A stretch of 61,736 nt of DNA from Jacunavirus JC01. Lineage: Duplodnaviria; Heunggongvirae; Uroviricota; Caudoviricetes; Casjensviridae. The stretch covers positions 1 to 61,736 of IMG/VR virus record IMGVR_UViG_2974716774_000001; one strand, given 5' to 3'. Under the pieces are notes generated by a model. That model did no database searches. It saw only the letters and a program-made list of their open reading frames with translations, and was not told the DNA's origin. The position numbers were made by a program, and so were the translations under genes. Shown here piece by piece: positions 6,215 to 61,736 of the stretch (positions are counted from its first letter, which is position 1; every line of letters starts with the position of its first letter).

Positions 6215-8269
6215 ATGCCTGACCACATTCGCCTTGACTATGAATCCCGTAGCCGAACCGACCTGCCCACTGCAGGCCTGGCCCGGTATGTGCGAGACCC
6301 GACCACGCAGGTGCTGATGGCTTCCTGGGAAGAGAACGATTCAGGGAAAATCGACTTCTGGGATATCCGCCAGGGCCGACGGCCGCCAAAACCGCTGATT
6401 GATGCTATCCGCGATCCGAAAGTTATCAAATGGGCCTTCAACGCGCAGTTTGAGCGCAACATGACCGAGCATGTCCTCGGCATAAAAACCCCGTATTCTT
6501 CCTGGCGCTGTACGATGGTGCTGGCGTACATGCTGGGCTTCTCTGGCGACCTCGCAATGATTGGCAGACTGGTAGGCCTGCCCGAAGAGATGCTGAAGAG
6601 CAAAGAGGGTTCGAAGCTCATCTCGCGTTTCTCAAAGCCGCGTAAACCAACAAAGGCCGACCCACGCGAATGGCACGACTGGACGACGCACCCGGAAGAG
6701 TTTGACAGTTTTGGCGGCTATAACCGACAGGACGTGCGCGCGGAGTCCGCTATCGGCCGTCGGCTCGGCAATACGGAGAAATACCCCATTCTGGAAAGCG
6801 AGTGGGATCTCTATGCGCTAGACCAGTACATCAACGACACCGGAGTCACCGTCAACGCCGAATTTGCGCGCATGGCACTTGAGGTGGCCGAGCGCAGGAA
6901 GCCGATCCTTTTTGAAGAGATGCGCGACATTACCGGCCTCAGTAACCCCAACTCCGTGTCTCAGCTGCTGCCCTGGCTGGGAGAACGCGGCTACCACTTC
7001 AGCGACATGCAGTCGGAAACAGTAAAGCAGGCGCTGCGCGAAGCCGATGAGCTGGGTCTTCCGGAAGAAGTTCGTCGCGTGCTGAAGCTGCGCCAGAACG
7101 TCAGCAAGTCGTCGCTCGGCAAATACAACACGATGCTGAGCACCATGACCGAGGAAGATAACAAATACCGCTACTCGCTGCAGATGTGGGGCGCCAGCCG
7201 CACCGGCCGCTGGGCAGGACGCGGCGTTCAGCTGCACAATTTGCCCCGCACGCCAAAAATGCTGGAAGACGAGTACATGCAGGACGTCGCCATTGAGATG
7301 GTGAAAAAAGGCGACATGGAAGGACTGGAGCTGCTGGTCGGCGAGCCGATGGACGCGCTGGTCGGTCTGATCCGCTCTGCCTTCATCCCCACCCCAGGCT
7401 ACCGTTTTGTGGTATCAGACCTGGCATCCATCGAATCGGTCGTTATCGGCTGGCTGACTGACTGCAAATGGTTCATGGACACGCTGCACGCCGGGCGAGA
7501 CCTGTACCGGGCGTTCGCCGCAGAGTGGCTGAAGATACCGTACGAAGAGACAAAACCGCACCGCAGCAAAGCCAAACCGGCAACCCTCGGCGCGGGCTAT
7601 GGTCTCGGCGGCGGCAAATTCGACCCGATTAAGAAAAAGAAAAACGGCCTGTGGGCATACGGCGAAGGTATGGGCGTATTCATGACCCAGCAGGAAGCGC
7701 ACGCGTCCGTGAATGCGTTCCGCGAGCTTTGCCCTGAAATCGTTTCGTACTGGCGCCAGCTGGAAGATGCAGCCAAGACGTGCATCAAAGAGCGCCGGTC
7801 GGTCAAGTGCGGCAAGGTTACTTTCGAGTTTCGTAAGCCGTTCATGGCCATCGTTCTTCCGTCCGGGCGCCGCCTGTATTACTTCAAGCCTTTCCTGAAA
7901 AAGAAAACCGTCGAGTACACGGACAAACACACCGGCGAGATCAAGACGTTCGAAAGCCAGGAGATTCTCTACTACGGGAAAGACGGCCCGAAATGGGGTC
8001 TCCAGCACACCTACGGCGGCAAGCTGGTGGAAAACATCGTACAGGCTATCGCGCGTGACGTGCTGGCCGGTGGGCTGAAACGCGCGCACGAAGACGGCTT
8101 CGGCATACCGTTCCACGTCCACGATGAAATCATCACGGAAGTGCCGGTCGACGACGAAGAGCGAAATCTCGATCGTCTGCGCCAGCACATGACGGCGCCG
8201 ATACCGTGGGCACCAGGTCTACCCCTCGGCGCAGCTGGGTGGGAAGGCTTCCACTACAGGAAAGACTGA
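6215..8269 (+). CDS. DNA polymerase, family A (Pol I-like)
   Basis: 684-aa ORF; motif A-like VVSDLASIESVV, motif B-like RSKAKPATLGAGYGLGG, motif C-like HVHDEIITEV; RBS GGAG upstream. Confidence 0.85.
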   Translation: MPDHIRLDYESRSRTDLPTAGLARYVRDPTTQVLMASWEENDSGKIDFWDIRQGRRPPKPLIDAIRDPKVIKWAFNAQFERNMTEHVLGIKTPYSSWRCTMVLAYMLGFSGDLAMIGRLVGLPEEMLKSKEGSKLISRFSKPRKPTKADPREWHDWTTHPEEFDSFGGYNRQDVRAESAIGRRLGNTEKYPILESEWDLYALDQYINDTGVTVNAEFARMALEVAERRKPILFEEMRDITGLSNPNSVSQLLPWLGERGYHFSDMQSETVKQALREADELGLPEEVRRVLKLRQNVSKSSLGKYNTMLSTMTEEDNKYRYSLQMWGASRTGRWAGRGVQLHNLPRTPKMLEDEYMQDVAIEMVKKGDMEGLELLVGEPMDALVGLIRSAFIPTPGYRFVVSDLASIESVVIGWLTDCKWFMDTLHAGRDLYRAFAAEWLKIPYEETKPHRSKAKPATLGAGYGLGGGKFDPIKKKKNGLWAYGEGMGVFMTQQEAHASVNAFRELCPEIVSYWRQLEDAAKTCIKERRSVKCGKVTFEFRKPFMAIVLPSGRRLYYFKPFLKKKTVEYTDKHTGEIKTFESQEILYYGKDGPKWGLQHTYGGKLVENIVQAIARDVLAGGLKRAHEDGFGIPFHVHDEIITEVPVDDEERNLDRLRQHMTAPIPWAPGLPLGAAGWEGFHYRKD

Positions 8270-8556
8270 TGGCCGCCAAAGTCGTCAAAGAGTCGAAAGT
8301 CGAGAAGGAGATCCGGCAGTACGCTCTCGCGACCGGCTGGTGGGTGGCGAAGTTCGTCGCCCCCGGCAAGCGCGGCGTACCGGATCGCCTGTTCATCAAA
8401 AACGGCTGGCACCTTTTCATGGAGATAAAAAGGCCCGGAGAGGTACCAACCGAACAGCAGTTACTTCGCCACCAGGAGATGCGCAAATATGGGGCTATTG
8501 TCGTATGGGTCGACAGCGTTGAAGAAGCTAAAAGCTGGCTTGATTTCATATGCTGA
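8269..8556 (+). CDS. VRR-NUC domain nuclease
   Basis: About 95 aa from the ATG overlapping the PolA stop (ATGA); residues PDRLFI...EIKRPGE fit the VRR-NUC pattern. Confidence 0.55.
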   Translation: MAAKVVKESKVEKEIRQYALATGWWVAKFVAPGKRGVPDRLFIKNGWHLFMEIKRPGEVPTEQQLLRHQEMRKYGAIVVWVDSVEEAKSWLDFIC

Positions 8557-10667: not shown

Positions 10668-12723
10668 AAACCTCGCTGCGATAGTAGCAGACCTGGCGGA
10701 GCAGCTGCGGCCGCCGGAGCGTCTCACCGTTGCCGCTGCCGCCGAGAAATATCGTTTCGTCAACCAGCCGGGTGCCTACATCGGGCCGTGGCTTAATGAG
10801 ACCGCGCCGTACATGGTCGAGCCGATGAACGTCTTCGCCAGCCGCGAGTATAACCGCATGGCGTTCGTCGGCCCGGCGCAGTGCGGCAAAACGGACTCCC
10901 TCATCATTAACGGCGTGGCCTATTCGGTGAAAGTCGACCCGCTGGACACGATGGTTTTCTGCCCCACCAGCAACGCGGCGCGCGACTTCTCGATGCGCCG
11001 TATCGACCGTCTCCACATGCACAGCCCCGAGATCGGGATGATGCTGCGCAAAAGCCGCGACGCCGACAACAAATTCGACAAGCACTATGTAAACGGCATG
11101 ATGCTGACGCTCAGCTTCCCGTCGAAAACGGAGATGGCAGGCCGCCCGGTAGGCCGCATCATCATGACCGACTTCGACCGTATGCCGATGGACGTGGATG
11201 GCGACGGCAACCCGTTTGACCTGGCGTCAAAGCGTACGACGACGTTTAACTCATTCGCCATGTGCTGCGCGGAGTCCTCGCCTTCCCTGCCGCTGACCGA
11301 CCCAAACTGGATAGCCAAAGGCGAGCATGAAGCGCCGCCCTGCGAGGGCATTTTCGCGCTCTACAACCGAGGCGACCGTCGACGCTGGCAGTGGCCATGC
11401 CTGCACTGCTGGACGTGGTTCGAGGGCAAATTCGAACACCTGCAGTGGGATACTCGCGAAGGCCTGTCCAACGCCGAGCGCGGCGAAACCGTACGCATGG
11501 TCTGCCCGCACTGCGGCGTGGAGATCCACCCTGACGAACGTCACGAGATGCAGCAGTGGGGGATGTGGGTGCCGGAAGGATGCCGTGTCAACGAGAAGGG
11601 TCAGCTCACGGGTAAGCGCCCTCGCACGCAGTTCGCGTCTTTCTGGCTGCGCGGCACGGCGGCGGCATTCGCTCAGTGGCGCAGCCTCGTCACCACCTAC
11701 CTCGACGCGCTGGATGAATATGACCGCACGATGTCCGAAGAGGCGCTGAAGAAATTCTGGAACAACGACATGGGCGAAGTCTACCGCCCGAAAAGCCAGG
11801 AGTCTCTGCGCGTACCGGAGGCACTCAAAGCCCGGGCCGAGAAGCTGCCGGAGCAGATGGTACCGAATGGCGTGCGTTTCCTCGTGGCGACCGTCGACGT
11901 CCAGCAGAACCGTTTTGAGGTTATGGTGTCCGGAATAATGCCCGGCCAGCCTTTTGACGTTGTGCCGATTGACCGCTTTAAGATCGCCAAGTCCGAGCGA
12001 CTGGACGTGGACGGCGAGCGCCTGCCCATTAACAGCTCAGCCTACCTTGAGGACTGGCGCCTGCTGGAAGAACGGGTCATCAACGCGTCCTACCCGCTGG
12101 CTGATGGCTCCGGTCGTCGGATGCGCGTCAAGATAACGGGCTGTGACTCCGGCGGTAAAGCCGGTACCACCGACAAGGCGTACGACTTCTGGCGTGAGCA
12201 GCGTGACAAAGGCAACGCTGGCCGATTCATTCTGCTGAAAGGTGAGCCAAACGCTTCGGCGCCGCGTACTCGCGTGGGCTTCCCGGACAGCCAGCGCAAA
12301 GATAATAAATCCGCAGCACGCGGCGATATTCCCGTGTTGTTCATAAACTCTAACATGATGAAGGACAGTCTTAACGGACGACTGGACGTCATGGAGCCCG
12401 GGAAGGGCATGATTCACCTGGCGACGTGGATGCCGGATGCGTTCTTCTCGGAGCTGTGCGCCGAGGTCAGAACGGACAAGGGATGGCAAAACCCGAAAAA
12501 CCTGCGAAACGAAGCGTGGGATTTGCTGTATTATCAGCTCGCTCTCTGCGCTTCGCCCAAGCTGCTGGCTGTCGAGATGATGGACTGGGAGAACCCTGTC
12601 GGCTGGGCGGAAGAGTGGGATAAAAACGACCTCGTATCGCAGCCAGATGAAGGCGAGCGCTTCCAGATGAAGGCGAGCGAGGATAAGATAGATTTCGGCA
12701 AATTCGCCGAGGCGCTTGCGTGA
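10651..12723 (+). CDS. Terminase large subunit (lambda gpA family)
   Basis: 690-aa ORF; Walker A GPAQCGKT; size and organisation as lambda gpA; followed by gpW-like and portal genes. Confidence 0.85.
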   Translation: MTTKYKNLAAIVADLAEQLRPPERLTVAAAAEKYRFVNQPGAYIGPWLNETAPYMVEPMNVFASREYNRMAFVGPAQCGKTDSLIINGVAYSVKVDPLDTMVFCPTSNAARDFSMRRIDRLHMHSPEIGMMLRKSRDADNKFDKHYVNGMMLTLSFPSKTEMAGRPVGRIIMTDFDRMPMDVDGDGNPFDLASKRTTTFNSFAMCCAESSPSLPLTDPNWIAKGEHEAPPCEGIFALYNRGDRRRWQWPCLHCWTWFEGKFEHLQWDTREGLSNAERGETVRMVCPHCGVEIHPDERHEMQQWGMWVPEGCRVNEKGQLTGKRPRTQFASFWLRGTAAAFAQWRSLVTTYLDALDEYDRTMSEEALKKFWNNDMGEVYRPKSQESLRVPEALKARAEKLPEQMVPNGVRFLVATVDVQQNRFEVMVSGIMPGQPFDVVPIDRFKIAKSERLDVDGERLPINSSAYLEDWRLLEERVINASYPLADGSGRRMRVKITGCDSGGKAGTTDKAYDFWREQRDKGNAGRFILLKGEPNASAPRTRVGFPDSQRKDNKSAARGDIPVLFINSNMMKDSLNGRLDVMEPGKGMIHLATWMPDAFFSELCAEVRTDKGWQNPKNLRNEAWDLLYYQLALCASPKLLAVEMMDWENPVGWAEEWDKNDLVSQPDEGERFQMKASEDKIDFGKFAEALA

Positions 12724-55450: not shown

Positions 55451-56208
55451 TTTGAACAGACCAGATAATCTTCCTGGTAGATGTCGGGACAGGAATGAGG
55501 AACCCAGTTGTGCTCACAGGGCTTCGTCTTTTCGCGGTCGATCCCGAGCGTCAGCGGGGCGATTTCATTCGGCATTATCTGGAAGTGGTTAGTCAGCGCG
55601 CCTGCGATGGCCATGCCTTCTTCCCGATCGATGCGTGTTTCGATGCGGGTCAGCAAGCCCTGCTGGAAGATGAATGAGGTTTCGCCCTGCACGTCGTCCA
55701 GCTGAATGACGCGAGGCATCTGATTGAGGTCGGGCAGCTTAAAGCTGGTGGTTTTTCCGCTGCCCTGCTGGCCGACACCGATGACGTCAGGACGGGATTT
55801 CCCCTGTTCCGGTGCGGCGGGCTTATATTGTCGATTCTCCATGCCGAGAAGCTTGAGTGCCTCATCGAAGAACATGATTTCCACCGAAAATCCCTCTGAC
55901 TCCAGTTTGTCGCGGGTTTTAGTGAGTTTTTCCTGACGTGCAACGTTCGTCAGAACCAGAAAGCGCCAGCCCAAAAGGGAGGTTTCGACCTGTTTGCCTG
56001 CAGCTCTGCACCGCGCAGCGAAAGAAGTCATGTTAATCAGATCCCGGAAATTTCCATCCCAGCTGTCGAGGACGCTTTTGCATTTAAGCTTCTCCTTAAG
56101 CGCATAGGCGTAGGTGGTTTTTCCGCAGCCCTGCGGGCCGACAACGATGACGAACGTCGGTCGGTCGCTGGTGACGGGAGGGATGGTGCTGCCATTATGT
56201 CGAATCAT
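55432..56208 (-). CDS. P-loop NTPase with two Walker-A motifs and C-terminal Cys/His zinc-ribbon-like tail
   Basis: 258-aa ORF; VGPQGCGKTT and VGQQGSGKTT; VIQLDD Walker-B-like; C-terminal CEHNWVPHSCP...CSKCGHH. Confidence 0.5.
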   Translation of the reverse strand: MIRHNGSTIPPVTSDRPTFVIVVGPQGCGKTTYAYALKEKLKCKSVLDSWDGNFRDLINMTSFAARCRAAGKQVETSLLGWRFLVLTNVARQEKLTKTRDKLESEGFSVEIMFFDEALKLLGMENRQYKPAAPEQGKSRPDVIGVGQQGSGKTTSFKLPDLNQMPRVIQLDDVQGETSFIFQQGLLTRIETRIDREEGMAIAGALTNHFQIMPNEIAPLTLGIDREKTKPCEHNWVPHSCPDIYQEDYLVCSKCGHHK

Positions 56209-56273
56209 TTCTCTGCTCCGGTTGGGGTGGTACGCCCGGCGAAGAGGTGCCGGGCCTATGGGTGCGCTGGCGG

Positions 56274-56684
56274 TCAGGCCGTGCGCGTTACGATGACCTG
56301 CACGTATACCACGCCGCTCGGCGTGATGGTGGCGTTGGTCTCCATTGTGAAGTTACGGTTGTCGACGCTCTTCGCGTGACGGATGGACTGATTCAGCGAC
56401 TGGCGCAGCTGGCGCTTCCATTCGTTCATGTTCTGACGAACCTCGGCCAGCGTCATGTCGTCCGGCATTTTCAGGCTGCGCGAGTAGTTTCCGCCAGGCT
56501 TGAGAGACAGCAGGTTGGAGATGGCGCTGCCCGGGCGGCCGTTGCCCGGCAGGTCTACGTCCGGCTCGGCAGACAGCAGGGCTGCGGTGATAGCCTGCGC
56601 AGTAAGGCTGGTGGCTGTGTTGCCGCCGGTCGGCGCGTCCACATCATCAGGCAGATCCCATACGTCGTCGTGCTCGTTTGACAT
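56274..56684 (-). CDS. Hypothetical protein, first gene of the long leftward accessory operon
   Basis: About 137 aa from the ATG at 56684 preceded by RBS GGAG; the longer upstream ORF extension runs through the direct repeats and is rejected. Confidence 0.5.
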   Translation of the reverse strand: MSNEHDDVWDLPDDVDAPTGGNTATSLTAQAITAALLSAEPDVDLPGNGRPGSAISNLLSLKPGGNYSRSLKMPDDMTLAEVRQNMNEWKRQLRQSLNQSIRHAKSVDNRNFTMETNATITPSGVVYVQVIVTRTA

Positions 56685-56717
56685 TTTATTACTCCGTGTG
56701 TCGTTTGAAGATGTGAG

Positions 56718-56747
56718 AAAGATATAACTACACTTCGGATGTGTCAA
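56718..56747 (-). promoter_or_regulatory. Sigma70-type promoter with embedded dyad (family member) driving the leftward operon
   Basis: Minus strand TTGACA-CATCCGAAGTGTAG...TATATC about 30 nt upstream of the 56684 start. Confidence 0.45.
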
Positions 56748-56771
56748 ACTTTTTCTGGGCGCTCGGGGGCA

Positions 56772-57024
56772 GGCTGACTTTCTGAAGTAAGGCGGCGCGG
56801 CATGGCGTTCGTCACGGAAAACCGACAGCCGGGTAACTTTTTGAAGTAAGGAAACGCCGTGGCGCCGCGCGACAACCGGCTGACTTTTTGAAGTAAGGAA
56901 GTCATTCAAAAATTTTGGAAGCGAGCGACAGCCGGGTAACTTTTTGAAGTAAGCCGGGGATTTTCCTGAACAGCCGCAAAACCTCGTCGGCTCGATCGAC
57001 AGCCGGGTAACTTTTTGAAGTAAG
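56772..57024. repeat. Array of five direct repeats (core CTTTTTGAAGTAAG; long form CGACAGCCGGGTAACTTTTTGAAGTAAG)
   Basis: Copies at about 56772-56792 (degenerate), 56823-56850, 56873-56898 (degenerate), 56926-56953 and 56997-57024. Confidence 0.85.
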
Positions 57025-57293
57025 CCCCGCGGGCGGCGCGCCTCGCGCGTATATAAAGAGGGCCGTGGCGCCGGGCGGCCCAGGGTGGCGCCGAAAACGT
57101 GTGAAAATACGCGATTTTTGCTTTTTCTATGTGAATCAAGCACTTATCGAATTTTCAGCGCCCTGGGCGGCGTGGTTTTCTTGTGAATCAATGGCTTACG
57201 AGGTGGGCGGCGCGCCCTGGTGGGCCGGGCCGTTCTGGATTTCCATATAAACCAGGCATTTAGCGAATCTGTGAAAATTTTTGTAGAAAGTCT

Positions 57294-57322
57294 TTGACAC
57301 ACTCCGGGTGTATCACTACTAT
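57294..57322 (+). promoter_or_regulatory. Sigma70-type promoter with embedded dyad (family member) driving rightward genes
   Basis: TTGACA-CACTCCGGGTGTATCAC-TACTAT. Confidence 0.45.
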
Positions 57323-57372
57323 TCATCTCATCGGGGCAGCGGCCCCCATCTAAAAACTGATGAGGCGAAAAT

Positions 57373-57633
57373 ATGGAAAAGGTCTATCACACGCTCAAAG
57401 GCGAAACCCTTCAACACTGGCTCACCATTGCCATTATCCGCGATGTTTCCGGCGATGCACGTGTTGAAACGCGCAGCACGATCCATGTTAATAAAGTCTC
57501 CCCCGTCTCCTTCACCTGGGGCGCAGATTTTACCGACGCTGACATCCTGAATGATGGCGACCTTCTGCGCGTAGTTTACCAGCGCTACGGTCGTGACATT
57601 TTCACCGGTAAATATACCCGCGATTTTAATTAA
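57373..57633 (+). CDS. Hypothetical protein
   Basis: 86-aa ORF with RBS GAGG upstream. Confidence 0.4.
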   Translation: MEKVYHTLKGETLQHWLTIAIIRDVSGDARVETRSTIHVNKVSPVSFTWGADFTDADILNDGDLLRVVYQRYGRDIFTGKYTRDFN

Positions 57634-57643
57634 GGAGATCATC

Positions 57644-58165
57644 ATGCAAACTATTCAAACTAAATATAGCAATGGTCGAGTACGTGCCGCGTGCTGGAAT
57701 GGCTCCTGTCGTATTGATGCAGACCCGGCGCTGTCCAGTGAGGCTAATCATCGTGCCGCCGCTGAAAAATTGGTCGCTAAATTAAACGCTAATCGTAACG
57801 TTTTATGGGGGATCGTATGCAGCGCGCCATCGGTGGGCGACGGCTGGACTTTCATTATTGACTACGTGCCGGATATTCGCCCGCTTAATATGTCCATCAC
57901 GGTTAAATTCATGCCCGCGACTAATACCGGCCCGGCTTATATGCGTGTTTATTCATGGTTAAAACCAAAAGGAATTAAGGTGCATTATTCGCCGAAAGTC
58001 GCGGACGGTTGCGATATTCAAGGGCACGCGTTGTATGCGGCAAATATAATGCTGGATGAAATAAACCGCCAGTGTGAGGAAACGCGCGCGGGTATCAAAT
58101 ACGGCATTAGCGAATACGTTATGACCTACGACGGCGATCGCCTGTTCACCGTCAAAGCTGAATAA
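57644..58165 (+). CDS. Hypothetical protein
   Basis: About 173 aa from the ATG at 57644 preceded by RBS AAGGAG. Confidence 0.45.
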   Translation: MQTIQTKYSNGRVRAACWNGSCRIDADPALSSEANHRAAAEKLVAKLNANRNVLWGIVCSAPSVGDGWTFIIDYVPDIRPLNMSITVKFMPATNTGPAYMRVYSWLKPKGIKVHYSPKVADGCDIQGHALYAANIMLDEINRQCEETRAGIKYGISEYVMTYDGDRLFTVKAE

Positions 58166-58277
58166 TATTTAATTCTGGCCTTTCCGCCGTCGAAATATGA
58201 AAGCCCCGCGGGCCGTGAGTAGCGGCGGAAAAGGTTTTAATTAAGTGTTAATCCGAATAACTGAAAGGGGAATTATT

Positions 58278-58901
58278 ATGCGTGCCATTAGTCTGTCTGA
58301 ATCCGCTTCTTACCGTGTCCTGTACACTTCCCTTGCGCATGTGTCGCCTGCGGATCTTGCCAACCTTAAATCTATGTGTGAGGCCGGATATTATTTCGTT
58401 CACAACGTGGAAAATGATTTTTCCGGTATTATTTGCCGCTATGGTGCCGTAACGCCTGAAAGCGATGTCGGGGAAGTGATGATCGGCGATTATGGGTTTT
58501 CTGAATCTTTCGGCGAAATGATCGCGCAGTTCAAAGACGCCGGTTTTGATGCGGTGCATTTTGACGTTGACGGGGATTTAGTGGAGGGCGTCACCTGGTA
58601 CACGGAAAATAATACTCGTGTACAGCCCATTGCTTACGGCTGTGAAATATTAACATGGTGGGATCTGGCCGTTGAGCATCAGCTCACCGCAACGGATGAA
58701 TACGGGGATGACGGCGACGCGGATTTAAAATATTTTTTGGCGGATGGCGTGCTGTACTGCCTCGATAATTTCATGCGAGTAACTGATGGCGAAATGCAGG
58801 AGATGGGCTTTCACGCGAGCGCCGGTGAATCAAACGGCAGCGCCATCTGCATTACGCTCTCGGATAATAGTGATTTTGTCGACGTGGCGCGCGTATCATG
58901 A
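58278..58901 (+). CDS. Hypothetical strongly acidic protein
   Basis: About 207 aa from the ATG at 58278 with RBS AAGGGG; very high Asp/Glu content. Confidence 0.45.
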   Translation: MRAISLSESASYRVLYTSLAHVSPADLANLKSMCEAGYYFVHNVENDFSGIICRYGAVTPESDVGEVMIGDYGFSESFGEMIAQFKDAGFDAVHFDVDGDLVEGVTWYTENNTRVQPIAYGCEILTWWDLAVEHQLTATDEYGDDGDADLKYFLADGVLYCLDNFMRVTDGEMQEMGFHASAGESNGSAICITLSDNSDFVDVARVS

Positions 58902-59104
58902 CCGGCCCGGCAAAACGTGCGGCGGTTAAATTTACCGTATGCGCCGCGCTTGCTGTATTCGGTGGAGTGGCGATCCCGTTTGCCGGGTCGCCGTATAAGG
59001 TTTTTCTTTATGTCCTGGCTATCGGCGTATGCGTTAAACTCGCATGGCCCAGCCAGGAGGAGGGCGAGGCGCTGATTAAGGCGGTAGACGATGAGAAGCG
59101 TTAA
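58898..59104 (+). CDS. Small membrane protein
   Basis: 68-aa ORF; two hydrophobic segments. Confidence 0.4.
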   Translation: MTGPAKRAAVKFTVCAALAVFGGVAIPFAGSPYKVFLYVLAIGVCVKLAWPSQEEGEALIKAVDDEKR

Positions 59105-59279
59105 GATTGAAACGCGCGGCGGCATGTTGCTACGCGCGCCGCTCGATGCGATATCCGTTATCGAGGAAACCGGATCGTTGCGCGCTGAATGGGACATGCG
59201 GCATGTGTTGATTCATAATCCGCGCTTCCTGTACACGGTCAGGCCCGGCGATATCAAATCAATTCAGTATTCCCAATAG
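59091..59279 (+). CDS. Hypothetical small protein
   Basis: 62-aa ORF overlapping the upstream gene; followed by a terminator. Confidence 0.35.
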   Translation: MRSVKIETRGGMLLRAPLDAISVIEETGSLRAEWDMRHVLIHNPRFLYTVRPGDIKSIQYSQ

Positions 59280-59303
59280 CCCGCATCGCGGGCTTTTTTA
59301 TTT
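59278..59303 (+). terminator. Rho-independent terminator
   Basis: Stem AGCCCGC / GCGGGCT, loop ATC, followed by TTTTTTATTT. Confidence 0.65.
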
Positions 59304-59372
59304 CCGATCCGCGACGAACGCCCTAGTTTTGGATAGCTCGCTAACTATCACATCACGAAAATAAATGATTGT

Positions 59373-59401
59373 TTGACACACTTCAGGTGTATCATTAATA
59401 T
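59373..59401 (+). promoter_or_regulatory. Sigma70-type promoter with embedded dyad (family member)
   Basis: TTGACA-CACTTCAGGTGTATCAT-TAATAT. Confidence 0.45.
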
Positions 59402-59447
59402 TCTCTTATCAGGCCGATTCCCGGCCCCCACTGATGAGGTTGTGATT

Positions 59448-59840
59448 ATGGATCGTACGAAACTTGCCGCTGATTTCACCCAGGGCTATATCGAGGCGCT
59501 GTTATTCTCTTCCACTGTCGAGATCAACGGCGAAACGGTGAGCGCCGATCTGGTGGGATATGTTTCAACCGCTGCGATCGGCTCATGCACTGCGGATTGT
59601 AACGATTTCCTGTCAAAGCATAAGCCGCTGGTAAAACAGGCCGCACGCATTGAAGGCTACAGCGCATCACAGGCGGGCCATGATTTCGCGCTCACCCGCA
59701 ACGGTCACGGCGCTGGATTCTGGGATCGCGAGGTGTTGCCCCAGGAGCTGCGCGACGCGCTCACAGCCGCATCACAGGCTTTCGGTGAGGTCAGCGCATA
59801 CGTGAATGATGCCGGTGAGGTCGAATTAGCCAACGCCTGA
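59448..59840 (+). CDS. Hypothetical protein
   Basis: About 130 aa from the ATG at 59448 with RBS GAGG. Confidence 0.45.
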   Translation: MDRTKLAADFTQGYIEALLFSSTVEINGETVSADLVGYVSTAAIGSCTADCNDFLSKHKPLVKQAARIEGYSASQAGHDFALTRNGHGAGFWDREVLPQELRDALTAASQAFGEVSAYVNDAGEVELANA

Positions 59841-59846
59841 AAGTGT

Positions 59847-59876
59847 TTGACACACTCGGTGTATGTCATGTATATT
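59847..59876 (+). promoter_or_regulatory. Sigma70-type promoter with embedded dyad (family member)
   Basis: TTGACA-CACTCGGTGTATGTCATG-TATATT. Confidence 0.4.
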
Positions 59877-59904
59877 CACCACATCAACTGGTGAGAGGTG
59901 ACAC

Positions 59905-60102
59905 ATGAAAACGATTTTCCTGATTTGCGGCCTGCTGGCGCTGGCTTTACTGGCTCTGAATGTTGAGTTTATCGGCGTGGCGGTCTTTGTGGTTGTCGCT
60001 GGTGCAATCGCAGCTGGTGGCGCGGCAATGATTCTTCTCCCGCTGTTCATCATGGCGCGTGACATCTGCCGCGCAGTGAGTAAGGCGGTGAGCCGTGGCT
60101 AA
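59905..60102 (+). CDS. Small hydrophobic membrane protein (two TM segments)
   Basis: 65-aa ORF with RBS GAGAGG; almost entirely hydrophobic. Confidence 0.45.
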   Translation: MKTIFLICGLLALALLALNVEFIGVAVFVVVAGAIAAGGAAMILLPLFIMARDICRAVSKAVSRG

Positions 60103-60346
60103 TAAATTCCTGATGGCCATGCGCCAGGCGGACACGTATCGCGGCCATCTGCGCGCTAAAGGCTTTACCCGCAAGGCTGGATCGGGCGACCTGATTTTCA
60201 CGCGTGGCGACGCCGATCTGCGCTATGACGGCGACGCCGATCGCTGGGTGTGTGATGTGTTCACCGTTGTTGATGGCGAGCGCGCCGTGCTGTTTACCCG
60301 CAAGGCCGCGCCCATGCTCTTAACCGTTTTGAAATCTGTTCTGTGA
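60095..60346 (+). CDS. Hypothetical protein
   Basis: 83-aa ORF overlapping the upstream stop. Confidence 0.4.
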   Translation: MANKFLMAMRQADTYRGHLRAKGFTRKAGSGDLIFTRGDADLRYDGDADRWVCDVFTVVDGERAVLFTRKAAPMLLTVLKSVL

Positions 60347-60356
60347 GGTGCTGATT

Positions 60357-60620
60357 ATGTCAATTGCTCTTATCCTGGCGGTGTGTACGCCGCTTATTTC
60401 CGGCGGTGATGAATGCACGCATCACTATGTGAAAATGTACGACACTCCCGCGCAGTGTGTGGCTGTGATGGATCGAAACCAGCAAAAGCTTGATGACCGC
60501 TATCTGGCCTGTCAAAGCGCCGATGCTATGTGGCTCATCGACCGCACCAACGGGCGCAGCGCAGAGCAAATCATCGCTGACCTTAACGCCAGCATTCCGT
60601 ATCAGGGCGGCGCTAAATGA
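60357..60620 (+). CDS. Hypothetical secreted/lipoprotein-like protein
   Basis: About 87 aa from the ATG at 60357 with RBS GAGGTG; N-terminal signal-like MSIALILAVCTPLISGG. Confidence 0.4.
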   Translation: MSIALILAVCTPLISGGDECTHHYVKMYDTPAQCVAVMDRNQQKLDDRYLACQSADAMWLIDRTNGRSAEQIIADLNASIPYQGGAK

Positions 60621-60707
60621 TGCGCCTGTTCTGTTTCGCGCTTTCCGGCGCGTATCTCGCTATCCTGGTGGCGCTGTTAGCCGCCGTATTCCTTCAGTGG
60701 TGACGCC

Positions 60708-61115
60708 ATGTCTATTGCAACTATCCCCCGTTACTATGTGCGCCTTGTGCGCCCGCATCGCCTGGAGCCGGGCCAGAAAATCATGGTTGAGGTCAAAACG
60801 CTGGTGCCGCTTGAGCCAATGACGCTAAACCGTCGTACCGTGTCGCGGTCTGACTGGCGCGTCGTTACCGTGGATGACGTGGAGTTTTTCGGCTCGCATG
60901 TCCTGGTGAATTGGTCGTATGACGATGAGCGCTACAACCGGGAAACCGAAAGATTTGATCCGCGCGTCAAATACGGCGCTATCCGCTACGATGCCGTGGA
61001 GCAATACGCGCCGCTCGTGCTTGCCTGGATCGAGGGCACCGAAAAAGAAAAACGCATCTGCATAGAAAATCGCGAGGCAAAGTACGGCATCTTTCCGCGT
61101 GACCGCTTCCGATAG
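60708..61115 (+). CDS. Hypothetical protein
   Basis: 135-aa ORF, last rightward gene before the terminal non-coding region. Confidence 0.45.
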   Translation: MSIATIPRYYVRLVRPHRLEPGQKIMVEVKTLVPLEPMTLNRRTVSRSDWRVVTVDDVEFFGSHVLVNWSYDDERYNRETERFDPRVKYGAIRYDAVEQYAPLVLAWIEGTEKEKRICIENREAKYGIFPRDRFR

Positions 61116-61156
61116 CTGATATCCATTCCTTCCCGTCTCTCATCCGGCCCGCCCTG

Positions 61157-61183
61157 CGCGGGCTTTTTTATTTCCGCTATTCC
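61157..61183 (+). terminator. Rho-independent terminator
   Basis: Stem GCCCGC / GCGGGC, loop CCTGC, followed by TTTTTTATTT; near-copy of the 59278-59303 terminator. Confidence 0.65.
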
Positions 61184-61343
61184 GCCACGCTTTGACCTTT
61201 ATCCGACTTGTGCGACGAACGCCCTGGTTTTGGATTCAATTCTAATTATCACGCATGTTATTAGTTAGCCGTGCCCGTTGCCACGTTGCAGCGTGCGCCC
61301 TGCGATGCGCCCTGTAAGCGGGCCTGTGATACGGGCCAGTGCT

Positions 61344-61445
61344 CACACACTTCGGATGTGTCATGGGTGGCTGTGGTGCTGACACTTCGGATGTATCAAA
61401 GGCGCGGTGTGATTGTGACACGTTGATACACATGGAATGTGTCAT
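61344..61445. promoter_or_regulatory. Cluster of TGACAC/GTGTCA dyad elements (operator-like or packaging-recognition sites)
   Basis: CACACACTTCGGATGTGTCA (61344-61363), TGACACTTCGGATGTATCA (about 61380-61398), GTGACACGTTGATACACA and AATGTGTCATG (about 61412-61445). Confidence 0.4.
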
Positions 61446-61724
61446 GCCTGCGGCTGTGCTGTGGTACGGATGATGCCGCGTGCCCTGGTGTGGTGGGCTG
61501 GTGGATAGCCCTGATAATACCCTTTCTCCTGATGTTCTGTGATGCGGTGTGACAACCGCACTATCTGATGCCCATAGAAGGCCGATAAACGAGGCTGTGC
61601 GGGCCGATCTATGCTGTGCCTATGATACCCTATTGCTTCTGTGCTTGCGTGGCGTGTGGTGCGCGCTGTGCGTTATTCCGCGAAAGCCGAAAAGGTACTT
61701 CCCCGGCCAGGCCGGAAAGCCGGG

Positions 61725-61736
61725 GGTGCGCAGAGC
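61725..61736. repeat. Terminal 12-bp direct repeat GGTGCGCAGAGC, right copy (putative cohesive end)
   Basis: Exact copy of bases 1-12 at the last 12 positions of the window. Confidence 0.6.

Follow-up and report, generated by a model that had tools for sequence, protein, structure and literature searches.

Genes and regulatory sequences at the right end of JC01

Jacunavirus JC01, a Cronobacter phage, is a Chi-like siphovirus of the Casjensviridae, with a gene order colinear with that of Salmonella phage Chi. Its genome has been described as Chi-like, 61,736 bp long and ending in the 12-mer GGTGCGCAGAGC (PMC9759504). We analyzed this genome over its whole length, here called the window, and found the cos 12-mer at both ends, at 1–12 and 61725–61736. 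Within the rightward early region, 0.5–2.5 kb from the right cos end, a predicted terminator is present twice, each time together with the DNA immediately downstream, which includes a 41-nt element. Copy A (59278–59351) and copy B (61146–61252) lie on either side of a block of small open reading frames (ORFs) that contains two early promoters, P2 and P3 (Table 1). The paper on JC01 mentions neither terminators nor repeats (PMC9759504). Among the sequenced phages of the collection, the one nearest to JC01 was Salmonella phage BAU.Micro_SLP-22 (Jacunavirus), with 75% identity across the packaging genes; a megablast search of the phage and plasmid collections turned up nothing closely related.

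A duplicated segment of terminator and downstream DNA

In the window, the 20-mer CGCGGGCTTTTTTATTTCCG has just two occurrences (59287 and 61157), as does the 24-mer GCGACGAACGCCCT(A/G)GTTTTGGAT (59311–59334 and 61212–61235); for each, zero occurrences are expected in shuffled sequence. The original prediction had described two near-identical terminators, each followed by this 24-nt element. All four features are real, with positions that needed adjustment: 61157, given as the beginning of the second terminator, is the start of the right arm of a hairpin that begins at 61146, and the elements had been placed at 59318–59341 and 61222–61245, which is 7–10 nt too high. The conserved ending that had been noted past the element was borne out, with the repeat running on to TAACTATCAC (59342–59351) and TAATTATCAC (61243–61252), making 41 nt at 80% identity.

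Gapped local alignment of the two regions, a check proposed along with the prediction, scored 68.5, compared with 18.2 ± 2.1 (maximum 26.5) for shuffled sequences. The alignment spans the right arm of the hairpin through ...ATCAC, so that similarity is not confined to the hairpin. Copy A corresponds to copy B minus internal deletions of 24 nt and 7 nt, and a nine-sequence alignment agrees; the TTTCCG tail of the terminator and the element are 4 nt apart in copy A and 35 nt apart in copy B. The terminator half and the element join in one homologous alignment. The pair is a segmental duplication rather than two similar terminators, and the terminator-plus-element repeats are true paralogs. An extension of the repeat upstream of the hairpin was considered; GATATC plus 9/19 matches is too weak to claim.

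Both hairpins have the features of textbook intrinsic (rho-independent) terminators, and we predict that they act as such. Six of the seven base pairs in each stem are G-C, TTTTTTATTT lies directly 3′ of both stems and provides a U6AU3 tract, and the 13-nt tail after the two hairpins is identical. RNA folding gave −12.5 kcal/mol for terminator A (z = −3.9) and −13.4 kcal/mol for terminator B (z = −2.2). All ORFs neighboring the two terminators are on the + strand and each hairpin ends a co-oriented block, so that a stable G+C hairpin, a U-tract and a location at the 3′ end of a co-oriented unit are combined in both. The foot of the terminator A stem overlaps the stop codon (59277–59279) of a 62-aa ORF, while terminator B begins 31 nt past the stop codon of a 135-aa ORF.

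The terminator B hairpin aligns with the terminal terminators of SLP-22, of L085 and L086 (uncultured Chi-like contigs of roughly 61 kb), and of the JC01-clade contig L083. This match argues that copy B is the ancestral copy, probably the original terminal terminator of the rightward early region, ∼560 bp before cos.

Table 1. Features of the duplicated module, the block between its copies and related sequences in the window
Feature	Coordinates	Strand	Description
62-aa ORF	59091..59279	+	ends at terminator A; start overlaps end of gp70-like gene
Terminator A	59278..59306	+	7-bp G+C-rich stem, 3-nt loop (59278–59294, AGCCCGC-ATC-GCGGGCT), then TTTTTTATTTCCG
Block between terminator copies	59307..61145	+	element A, P2, phrog_1915 gene, P3, five further ORFs
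Element A	59311..59351	+	GCGACGAACGCCCTAGTTTTGGAT (24-nt core), AGCTCG (variable middle), CTAACTATCAC (tail)
A/T-rich spacer	59352..59372	+	ATCACGAAAATAAATGATTGT; between element A and −35; 21–22 nt in all seven copy-A sequences
Early promoter P2	59373..59401	+	TTGACA-17-TAATAT, embedded inverted repeat ACAC..GTGT; predicted to drive phrog_1915 gene
phrog_1915 gene	59448–59840	+	in block, after P2
Early promoter P3	59847..59876	+	TTGACA-18-TATATT, paralog of P2; predicted to drive ORFs 59905 to 61115
65-aa membrane ORF	59905–60102	+	in block, after P3
SLP22_0079 homolog	60095–60346	+	in block
87-aa ORF	60357–60620	+	in block
Small ...LQW peptide ORF	60617–60703	+	in block
135-aa ORF	60708–61115	+	last in block, before terminator B
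Terminator B	61146..61176	+	7-bp stem, 5-nt loop (61146–61164, GGCCCGC-CCTGC-GCGGGCT), then TTTTTTATTTCCG
Copy-B-specific spacer	61177..61211	+	not in copy A, owing to 24-nt and 7-nt deletions
Element B	61212..61252	+	GCGACGAACGCCCTGGTTTTGGAT, TCAAT, TCTAATTATCAC
Possible decayed promoter remnant	61278..61306	+	TTGCCA-17-TGCGAT, no A at −10 position 2; 25 nt after element B; direct reading
Early-promoter core palindromes	61343–61363, 61380–61398, 61424–61444		TGACACA-N5-7-TGTRTCA; between last terminator and cos; all without −10 hexamer
Third, partial copy of element 5′ part	56801..56818	−	TCCGTGACGAACGCCATG; between iteron-like repeats 1 and 2, divergent early-promoter region
Second composite, without 41-nt element	∼50058–49989	−	terminator GCCCGGATTAGTCACCCGGGCTTTTCTTTT, 13 nt, early promoter TTGACACACGCAGAGTGTGTAATTAGTAT

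Copy A forms a composite junction with an early promoter

Seven paralogous early promoters with a shared embedded inverted repeat were found, at 57294 (P1), 59373 and 59847 on the + strand and at 56747, 50017, 45011 and 44414 on the − strand. P2, a strong predicted sigma-70 promoter, is 21–22 bp downstream of element A, and terminator A, element A and P2 together make up a 125-bp composite terminator-promoter junction. The A/T-rich spacer between element A and the −35 hexamer may resemble an UP element. The sequence listed as a possible promoter remnant behind copy B has weak homology to P2 (∼10/22 positions). The original prediction had spoken of a duplicated regulatory cassette. This holds for the homologous duplication and the terminators, and it fits copy A well because copy A is joined to an early promoter; for the element itself, a regulatory role is no more than plausible.

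The 41-nt element

Conservation of the element is bipartite, with 24 nt and 11–13 nt on either side of a variable center of 4–6 nt. Its consensus is GCGACGAACGCCCTGGTTTTGGAT, 4–5 variable nt and TCTAATAATCAC, with the ending CTAAYWATCAC; element B is conserved in L083 at 1699–1739. Among the aligned relatives, the element keeps a constant 21–22 nt from the −35 hexamer whereas its distance from the terminator ranges from 0 to 45 nt, which groups it with the promoter side of the junction. Six copy-A orthologs, closely related and thus not independent, showed variable columns at 9/41 element positions (22%) compared with 40/89 (45%) in flanking non-coding DNA (Fisher p = 0.012). Within the 24-nt core, 17% of columns were variable, matching the invariance of the promoter. 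This lower variability, our sole evidence for function, is modest evidence that the element is under constraint.

Searches for a known type of signal in the element gave little. A consensus scan found no promoter hexamers at usable spacing in it, and RNA folds of either strand were no better than those of shuffled sequence (z −0.7 to +1.1). An Rfam 15 scan of 56000–61736 at a permissive E-value returned no match with E < 0.2; those at 59203–59308 fell far short of the gathering scores and were noise caused by the terminator. Scans for the exact pattern of the element found it neither in IMG/VR nor in the Joint Genome Institute (JGI) metagenomes, and a sensitive search with copy A alone gave terminator-like matches only. 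By eye, a sigma-54 site was rejected for wrong GG/GC spacing, a sigma-28 site for a poor −10, and a sigma-E site because GAAC and TCTAA are present with a spacer of 18 nt, not 16 nt; nor does the consensus of IHF or DnaA boxes fit. A miniature inverted-repeat transposable element or insertion sequence was dismissed, the only two copies being on one strand with differing flanks and no inverted repeat besides the hairpin.

Although much more diverged overall, the contig L085 still has GACGAACG...TTTTTGG directly behind its terminal terminator. Comparison of L085 (8590–8650) with L086 (∼7945) reveals a 61-nt indel directly after the terminal terminator, and the 61-nt segment of L085 carries GACGAACG...TTTTTGG and one promoter-core-like repeat. 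The position just after the terminal terminator appears to be an indel hotspot. Retention of a diverged element by L085, and its loss through this indel by the close relative L086, suggest that the sequence is old but dispensable.

A partial copy of the element lies elsewhere in the genome. Its first 12–15 nt (YCCGYGACGAACGCC) recur on the opposite strand in the spacer between the first two of five iteron-like direct repeats (...GGTAACTTTTTGAAGTAAG), which are 47–71 nt apart at 56764–57027, between divergent early promoters. The word GACGAAC(C/G) is found in the same iteron spacer of SLP-22 and L085; positions noted for such words, in the spacer and elsewhere, are L082 ∼1563 and 4753 and L085 ∼4362, 4413 and 8601. 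The iterons are conserved across Chi-like genera (L001 1124–1368, L082 1542–1799, L085 4320–4565), making the array a candidate replication origin or regulator array. Across the JC01 genome YGACGAACG occurs 16 times, whereas dinucleotide shuffles gave 2.2 and codon-preserving shuffles 5.3 ± 1.8; most occurrences are antisense to genes, and they share no extended context. In L082, L085 and L086 GACGAAC is frequent as well, but the 7-kb right end of Chi does not contain it. We did not use this excess as evidence on the element: words such as GCTGGTGG are equally enriched, and it probably reflects codon-pair usage. The latter word, the E. coli Chi hotspot, has 32 occurrences (21 on the + strand, 11 on the −), or one per 1.9 kb, compared with 9.3 ± 2.4 in codon shuffles. 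Examples are at 912, 2362, 60013 and 61497 (+) and at 10971 and 55424 (−), two of the + copies being <1.8 kb from the right cos end.

Relatives reveal gain and loss of gene cassettes

Protein look-ups recovered seven short uncultured contigs of the JC01 clade, L083 representing copy B and L084 and L207–L211 representing copy A. L083 comes from SRR10605997 and L084 from SRR21374460. Terminator and element were at the same positions in 7/7. The search in related phages that had been proposed with the original prediction thus found both copies in place in independent assemblies (copy A in six contigs, copy B in one).

The small ORFs that follow differ among L083, L084 and JC01, and gene content of the region varies among the relatives. 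L211 is equivalent to JC01 minus exactly 473 nt, comprising P2 and the phrog_1915 gene (window 59366–59838); its junction is within repeated promoter-upstream sequence, with the region before P2 joined straight to P3. L210 is a mosaic, L084-like sequence switching to JC01-like at the promoter. Since one relative is without exactly one promoter-plus-gene cassette, we suggest that repeated regulatory sequences drive cassette gain and loss. The right arm would then be a hyperplastic region, with these repeated sequences as its probable recombination substrates.

The order in SLP-22 is gp70-like gene, promoter, 0078 (255 aa), 0079, 0080, small peptide and terminator, and three JC01 proteins (gp70-like, 0078 C-terminus and 0079) are each 46–47% identical to their SLP-22 counterparts. 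Genes 0078 and 0079 abut in SLP-22; their JC01 homologs are split by terminator A, element A, P2, the phrog_1915 gene, P3 and the 65-aa ORF. We take copy A to mark the left edge of a presumed accessory insertion. The 62-aa ORF before it has homology (47% identity) to no more of the 255-aa SLP22_0078 than its C-terminal 57 residues, and could be either what is left of a truncated gene or a gene for a domain on its own.

Pfam and PHROGs assigned the block ORFs to families of unknown function only. A related-locus search with the 135-aa protein found nothing, and one with the phrog_1915 protein found only distant, unrelated phages. In SLP-22, L085 and L086 the final ORF ahead of the terminal terminator is one for a small hydrophobic peptide with the ending ...(L/C)QW (L086 ∼7822–7899; L085 ∼8471–8548; L082 ∼6516–6590; the JC01 ORF is in Table 1). 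JC01 has the extra 135-aa ORF between its ...LQW peptide ORF and terminator B, and L083 has a further 72-aa ORF there.

The region between copy B and cos

A minus-strand terminator at 514–499 faces cos from the opposite side. The non-coding cos region is ∼1.1 kb (61177–61736 plus 1–548), bracketed on both sides by inward-facing terminators. The cluster of promoter-core palindromes near the right end (Table 1) has counterparts in SLP-22, L083, L085 and L086 and, as four inverted copies, in Chi. The right-end core copies of any one of these phages match its own promoter core, which suggests that one sequence-specific protein binds both the early promoters and the cos-proximal cluster.

Interpretation and alternative explanations

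Our preferred reading, to which we give a probability of about 60%, is that a 75–105-bp operon-boundary module was duplicated in the variable right arm and has the terminator, promoter and shuffling roles proposed here. The module would consist of a rho-independent terminator and the DNA just downstream, including the bipartite 41-bp element. Copy A, a paralog of copy B at the left edge of the accessory block, very probably ends the transcript from P1 (57294). P2 and P3 would then re-initiate transcription of the accessory genes, and copy B in all likelihood ends the P2/P3 transcripts and shields cos. The two modules, as direct repeats, and the seven paralogous promoters would offer homologous sequence at which recombination could insert or delete gene cassettes. 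The 41-bp element, probably part of the promoter-upstream side of the module, could be a protein-binding site. The duplication, the anatomy and positions of the terminators, the synteny, the conservation in relatives and the one promoter-bounded cassette indel can be read directly from the DNA; termination itself, recombination between the terminator copies and any binding to the element are inferred.

Several points weigh against this reading, besides the kinship of the six sequences behind the constraint test. Divergence between the two copies is ∼12% over 41 nt, no lower than the 10–17% of orthologous non-coding DNA, which leaves room for the element to have hitch-hiked neutrally. Chi and L086 lack the element, as does the DNA downstream of the SLP-22 terminal terminator; L085 has a diverged version only, and in SLP-22 just the word GCGACGAAC follows the gp70-like gene. 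Chi-like phages in general therefore have no need of it. Copy B is not followed by a functional promoter, as TGCGAT cannot be a working −10, and so falls short of a full composite. Relative to SLP-22, the insertion (59278–60094) is not bounded on the right by copy B, so a simple history of a cassette integrated at the repeat does not fit. Finally, no relative was found with the inter-terminator block missing or replaced. Recombination between the terminator copies is thus unobserved, and our suggestion that they might recombine to delete or exchange the 1.9-kb block is a tentative one.

It is scarcely credible that the resemblance is due to chance, to convergence of two independent terminators or to an assembly artefact. 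Terminators of the form GCCCGC...GCGGGC-T6 are generic, and the 19-mer GCGGGCTTTTTTATTTCCG matches >120 unrelated metagenome contigs, none with the element and none related to the window. In JC01, however, the likeness continues for 41 nt past the terminator, where zero is expected, and the copies were found in seven independent assemblies of other samples. Exact-repeat counts, gapped alignment and the contigs of relatives together refute this explanation. A distinctly more plausible possibility, though not our preference, is that the element is functionless: a spacer copied along with the terminator, its copies alike because the duplication is young-ish or because recombination occasionally homogenizes them. 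The copies differ at 8/41 positions within JC01 and at 5/41 between copy A of L084 and copy B of JC01, in the same range as the orthologous non-coding divergence given above. The element has no recognizable promoter, RNA structure or Rfam family, it is missing from Chi and L086, and the L085/L086 indel falls exactly there. A neutral spacer would not, on the other hand, be expected to vary half as often as its flanks among copy-A orthologs, to have bipartite conservation and a fixed distance to the −35 hexamer, or to be retained in part after the terminal terminator of so divergent a contig as L085.

We considered two further functions for the element. It is unlikely to be an unconventional promoter in which the tail supplies a −10-like hexamer (AATAAT/AACTAT/AATTAT) and the 24-nt core an activator box in place of a −35, much like T4 middle promoters, re-initiating right after each terminator. 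Positions 2 and 6 of the hexamer are indeed A and T in every copy, by our own reading the core would be at roughly −44 to −21 of the implied start, and the bipartite conservation suits such a design. Yet a −35 hexamer and an extended −10 TG are both missing, and the consensus scan detected no promoter there. The genome has just two copies, neither of them upstream of late genes; no gene-like or structured-RNA feature lies between copy B and cos; and the strong sigma-70 promoter ∼30 nt after element A would make it redundant. More improbable still is that the element encodes a small RNA or a 17-codon minus-strand ORF (GTG..., V-I-[VI]-x-x-x-S-K-T-R-A-F-V-A...). This frame is open across the core in all copies, and 3/5 core substitutions among relatives are synonymous in it by our own translation, but a plus-strand frame gives a similar synonymous count, so the signal is not frame-specific. 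The ORF has no Shine-Dalgarno sequence, a GTG start and no promoter facing that way, and its C-terminus differs between copies, reaching ∼30 codons in L084. We rejected it for its want of a ribosome-binding site, its inconsistent end and the non-specific synonymous signal. A small RNA is opposed by the folding z-scores and the empty Rfam scan reported above.

Within our preferred reading, that of a duplicated operon-boundary module, a putative protein-binding site upstream of a promoter is a tentative assignment for the 41-bp element. A bolder version, which we hold doubtful, is that a phage or host protein binds the element as part of a mobile terminator-operator-promoter cassette, and that Chi-like phages shuffle early accessory genes in the manner of the PeSL repeats discussed below. 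If so, a factor bound to the element might couple termination with re-initiation and with protection of the DNA near cos, and it might also recognize the GACGAAC word in iteron spacers of the putative origin of JC01, SLP-22 and L085.

The module matters in several ways. It yields a concrete, testable map of early transcription units for the poorly studied flagellotropic Chi-like phages, which have been proposed as Cronobacter/Salmonella biocontrol agents. Repeated regulatory junctions, known drivers of gene shuffling in T4-like myoviruses, may act likewise in a siphovirus lineage unrelated to them. With direct repeats 1.9 kb apart, deletion variants that have lost six or seven accessory genes are predicted to arise spontaneously, and such variants would bear on the genetic stability of a candidate biocontrol phage.

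Comparison with known systems

The JC01 hairpins themselves, with a 7-bp stem, a 3–5-nt loop and a U-run, are no different from other intrinsic terminators of Enterobacteriaceae and their phages. What is unusual in JC01 is that 41 nt of downstream DNA has been copied along. At the right end of Chi, a terminal terminator is followed by promoter-core-like repeats and then cos, and copy B of JC01 occupies the terminal-terminator position. Outside the JC01 clade the 41-nt element is found only as a diverged trace, in L085, and Chi is without it. Chi has instead a perfect 23-nt direct repeat, CCGGATTTTCGGGGAACGCCGCA, unlike the JC01 repeat in sequence and not including the terminator. The copies of this Chi repeat (L001 4061–4083 and 6540–6562; record ∼56560 and ∼59039) are at the gp70 5′ end and after the gp75 stop, before the terminal terminator. 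They bracket gp70–gp75 and thereby flank the same variable block region as the JC01 repeats.

Some lambdoid and other tailed phages carry morons, promoter-gene-terminator units inserted between genes that are adjacent in relatives. The JC01 accessory block is similar in having its own promoters and in lying between genes that abut in SLP-22. It differs from a moron in that the terminator is at the upstream edge of the insert rather than the downstream one, the block holds two promoter-gene units, and the terminator copies the phage's own terminal terminator, not foreign DNA.

The closest parallel is with PeSLs (promoter-early stem-loops), the composite terminator/promoter repeats of T4-like myoviruses, which are recombination substrates in hyperplastic regions (PMC4122927; PMC2839356). 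As in those repeats, a small stem-loop terminator adjoins an early promoter in JC01, both at copy A and in the minus-strand composite at ∼50058–49989, and direct repeats are found in a variable region rich in small ORFs of unknown function. Indel junctions between close relatives also lie inside repeats (L211, L210), in the promoter repeats only; none was seen among the relatives inside the terminator-plus-element repeats. Other differences are plain. JC01 is a siphovirus of another family with sequences unrelated to the PeSL consensus, and neither a deletion between terminator copies nor an excision circle has been observed. PeSLs are numerous, whereas JC01 has two terminator-plus-element copies (its early promoters number seven), a further point against our reading. 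Copy B has no working promoter, and copy A has an extra conserved 41-bp element between terminator and promoter. As its phage type and sequence are unlike those of the T4 PeSLs, we regard the JC01 repeats as an analog of that group and not a member. The JC01 module is real but ordinary, a duplicated operon boundary in an accessory region prone to shuffling, and a new instance of a known phage architecture.

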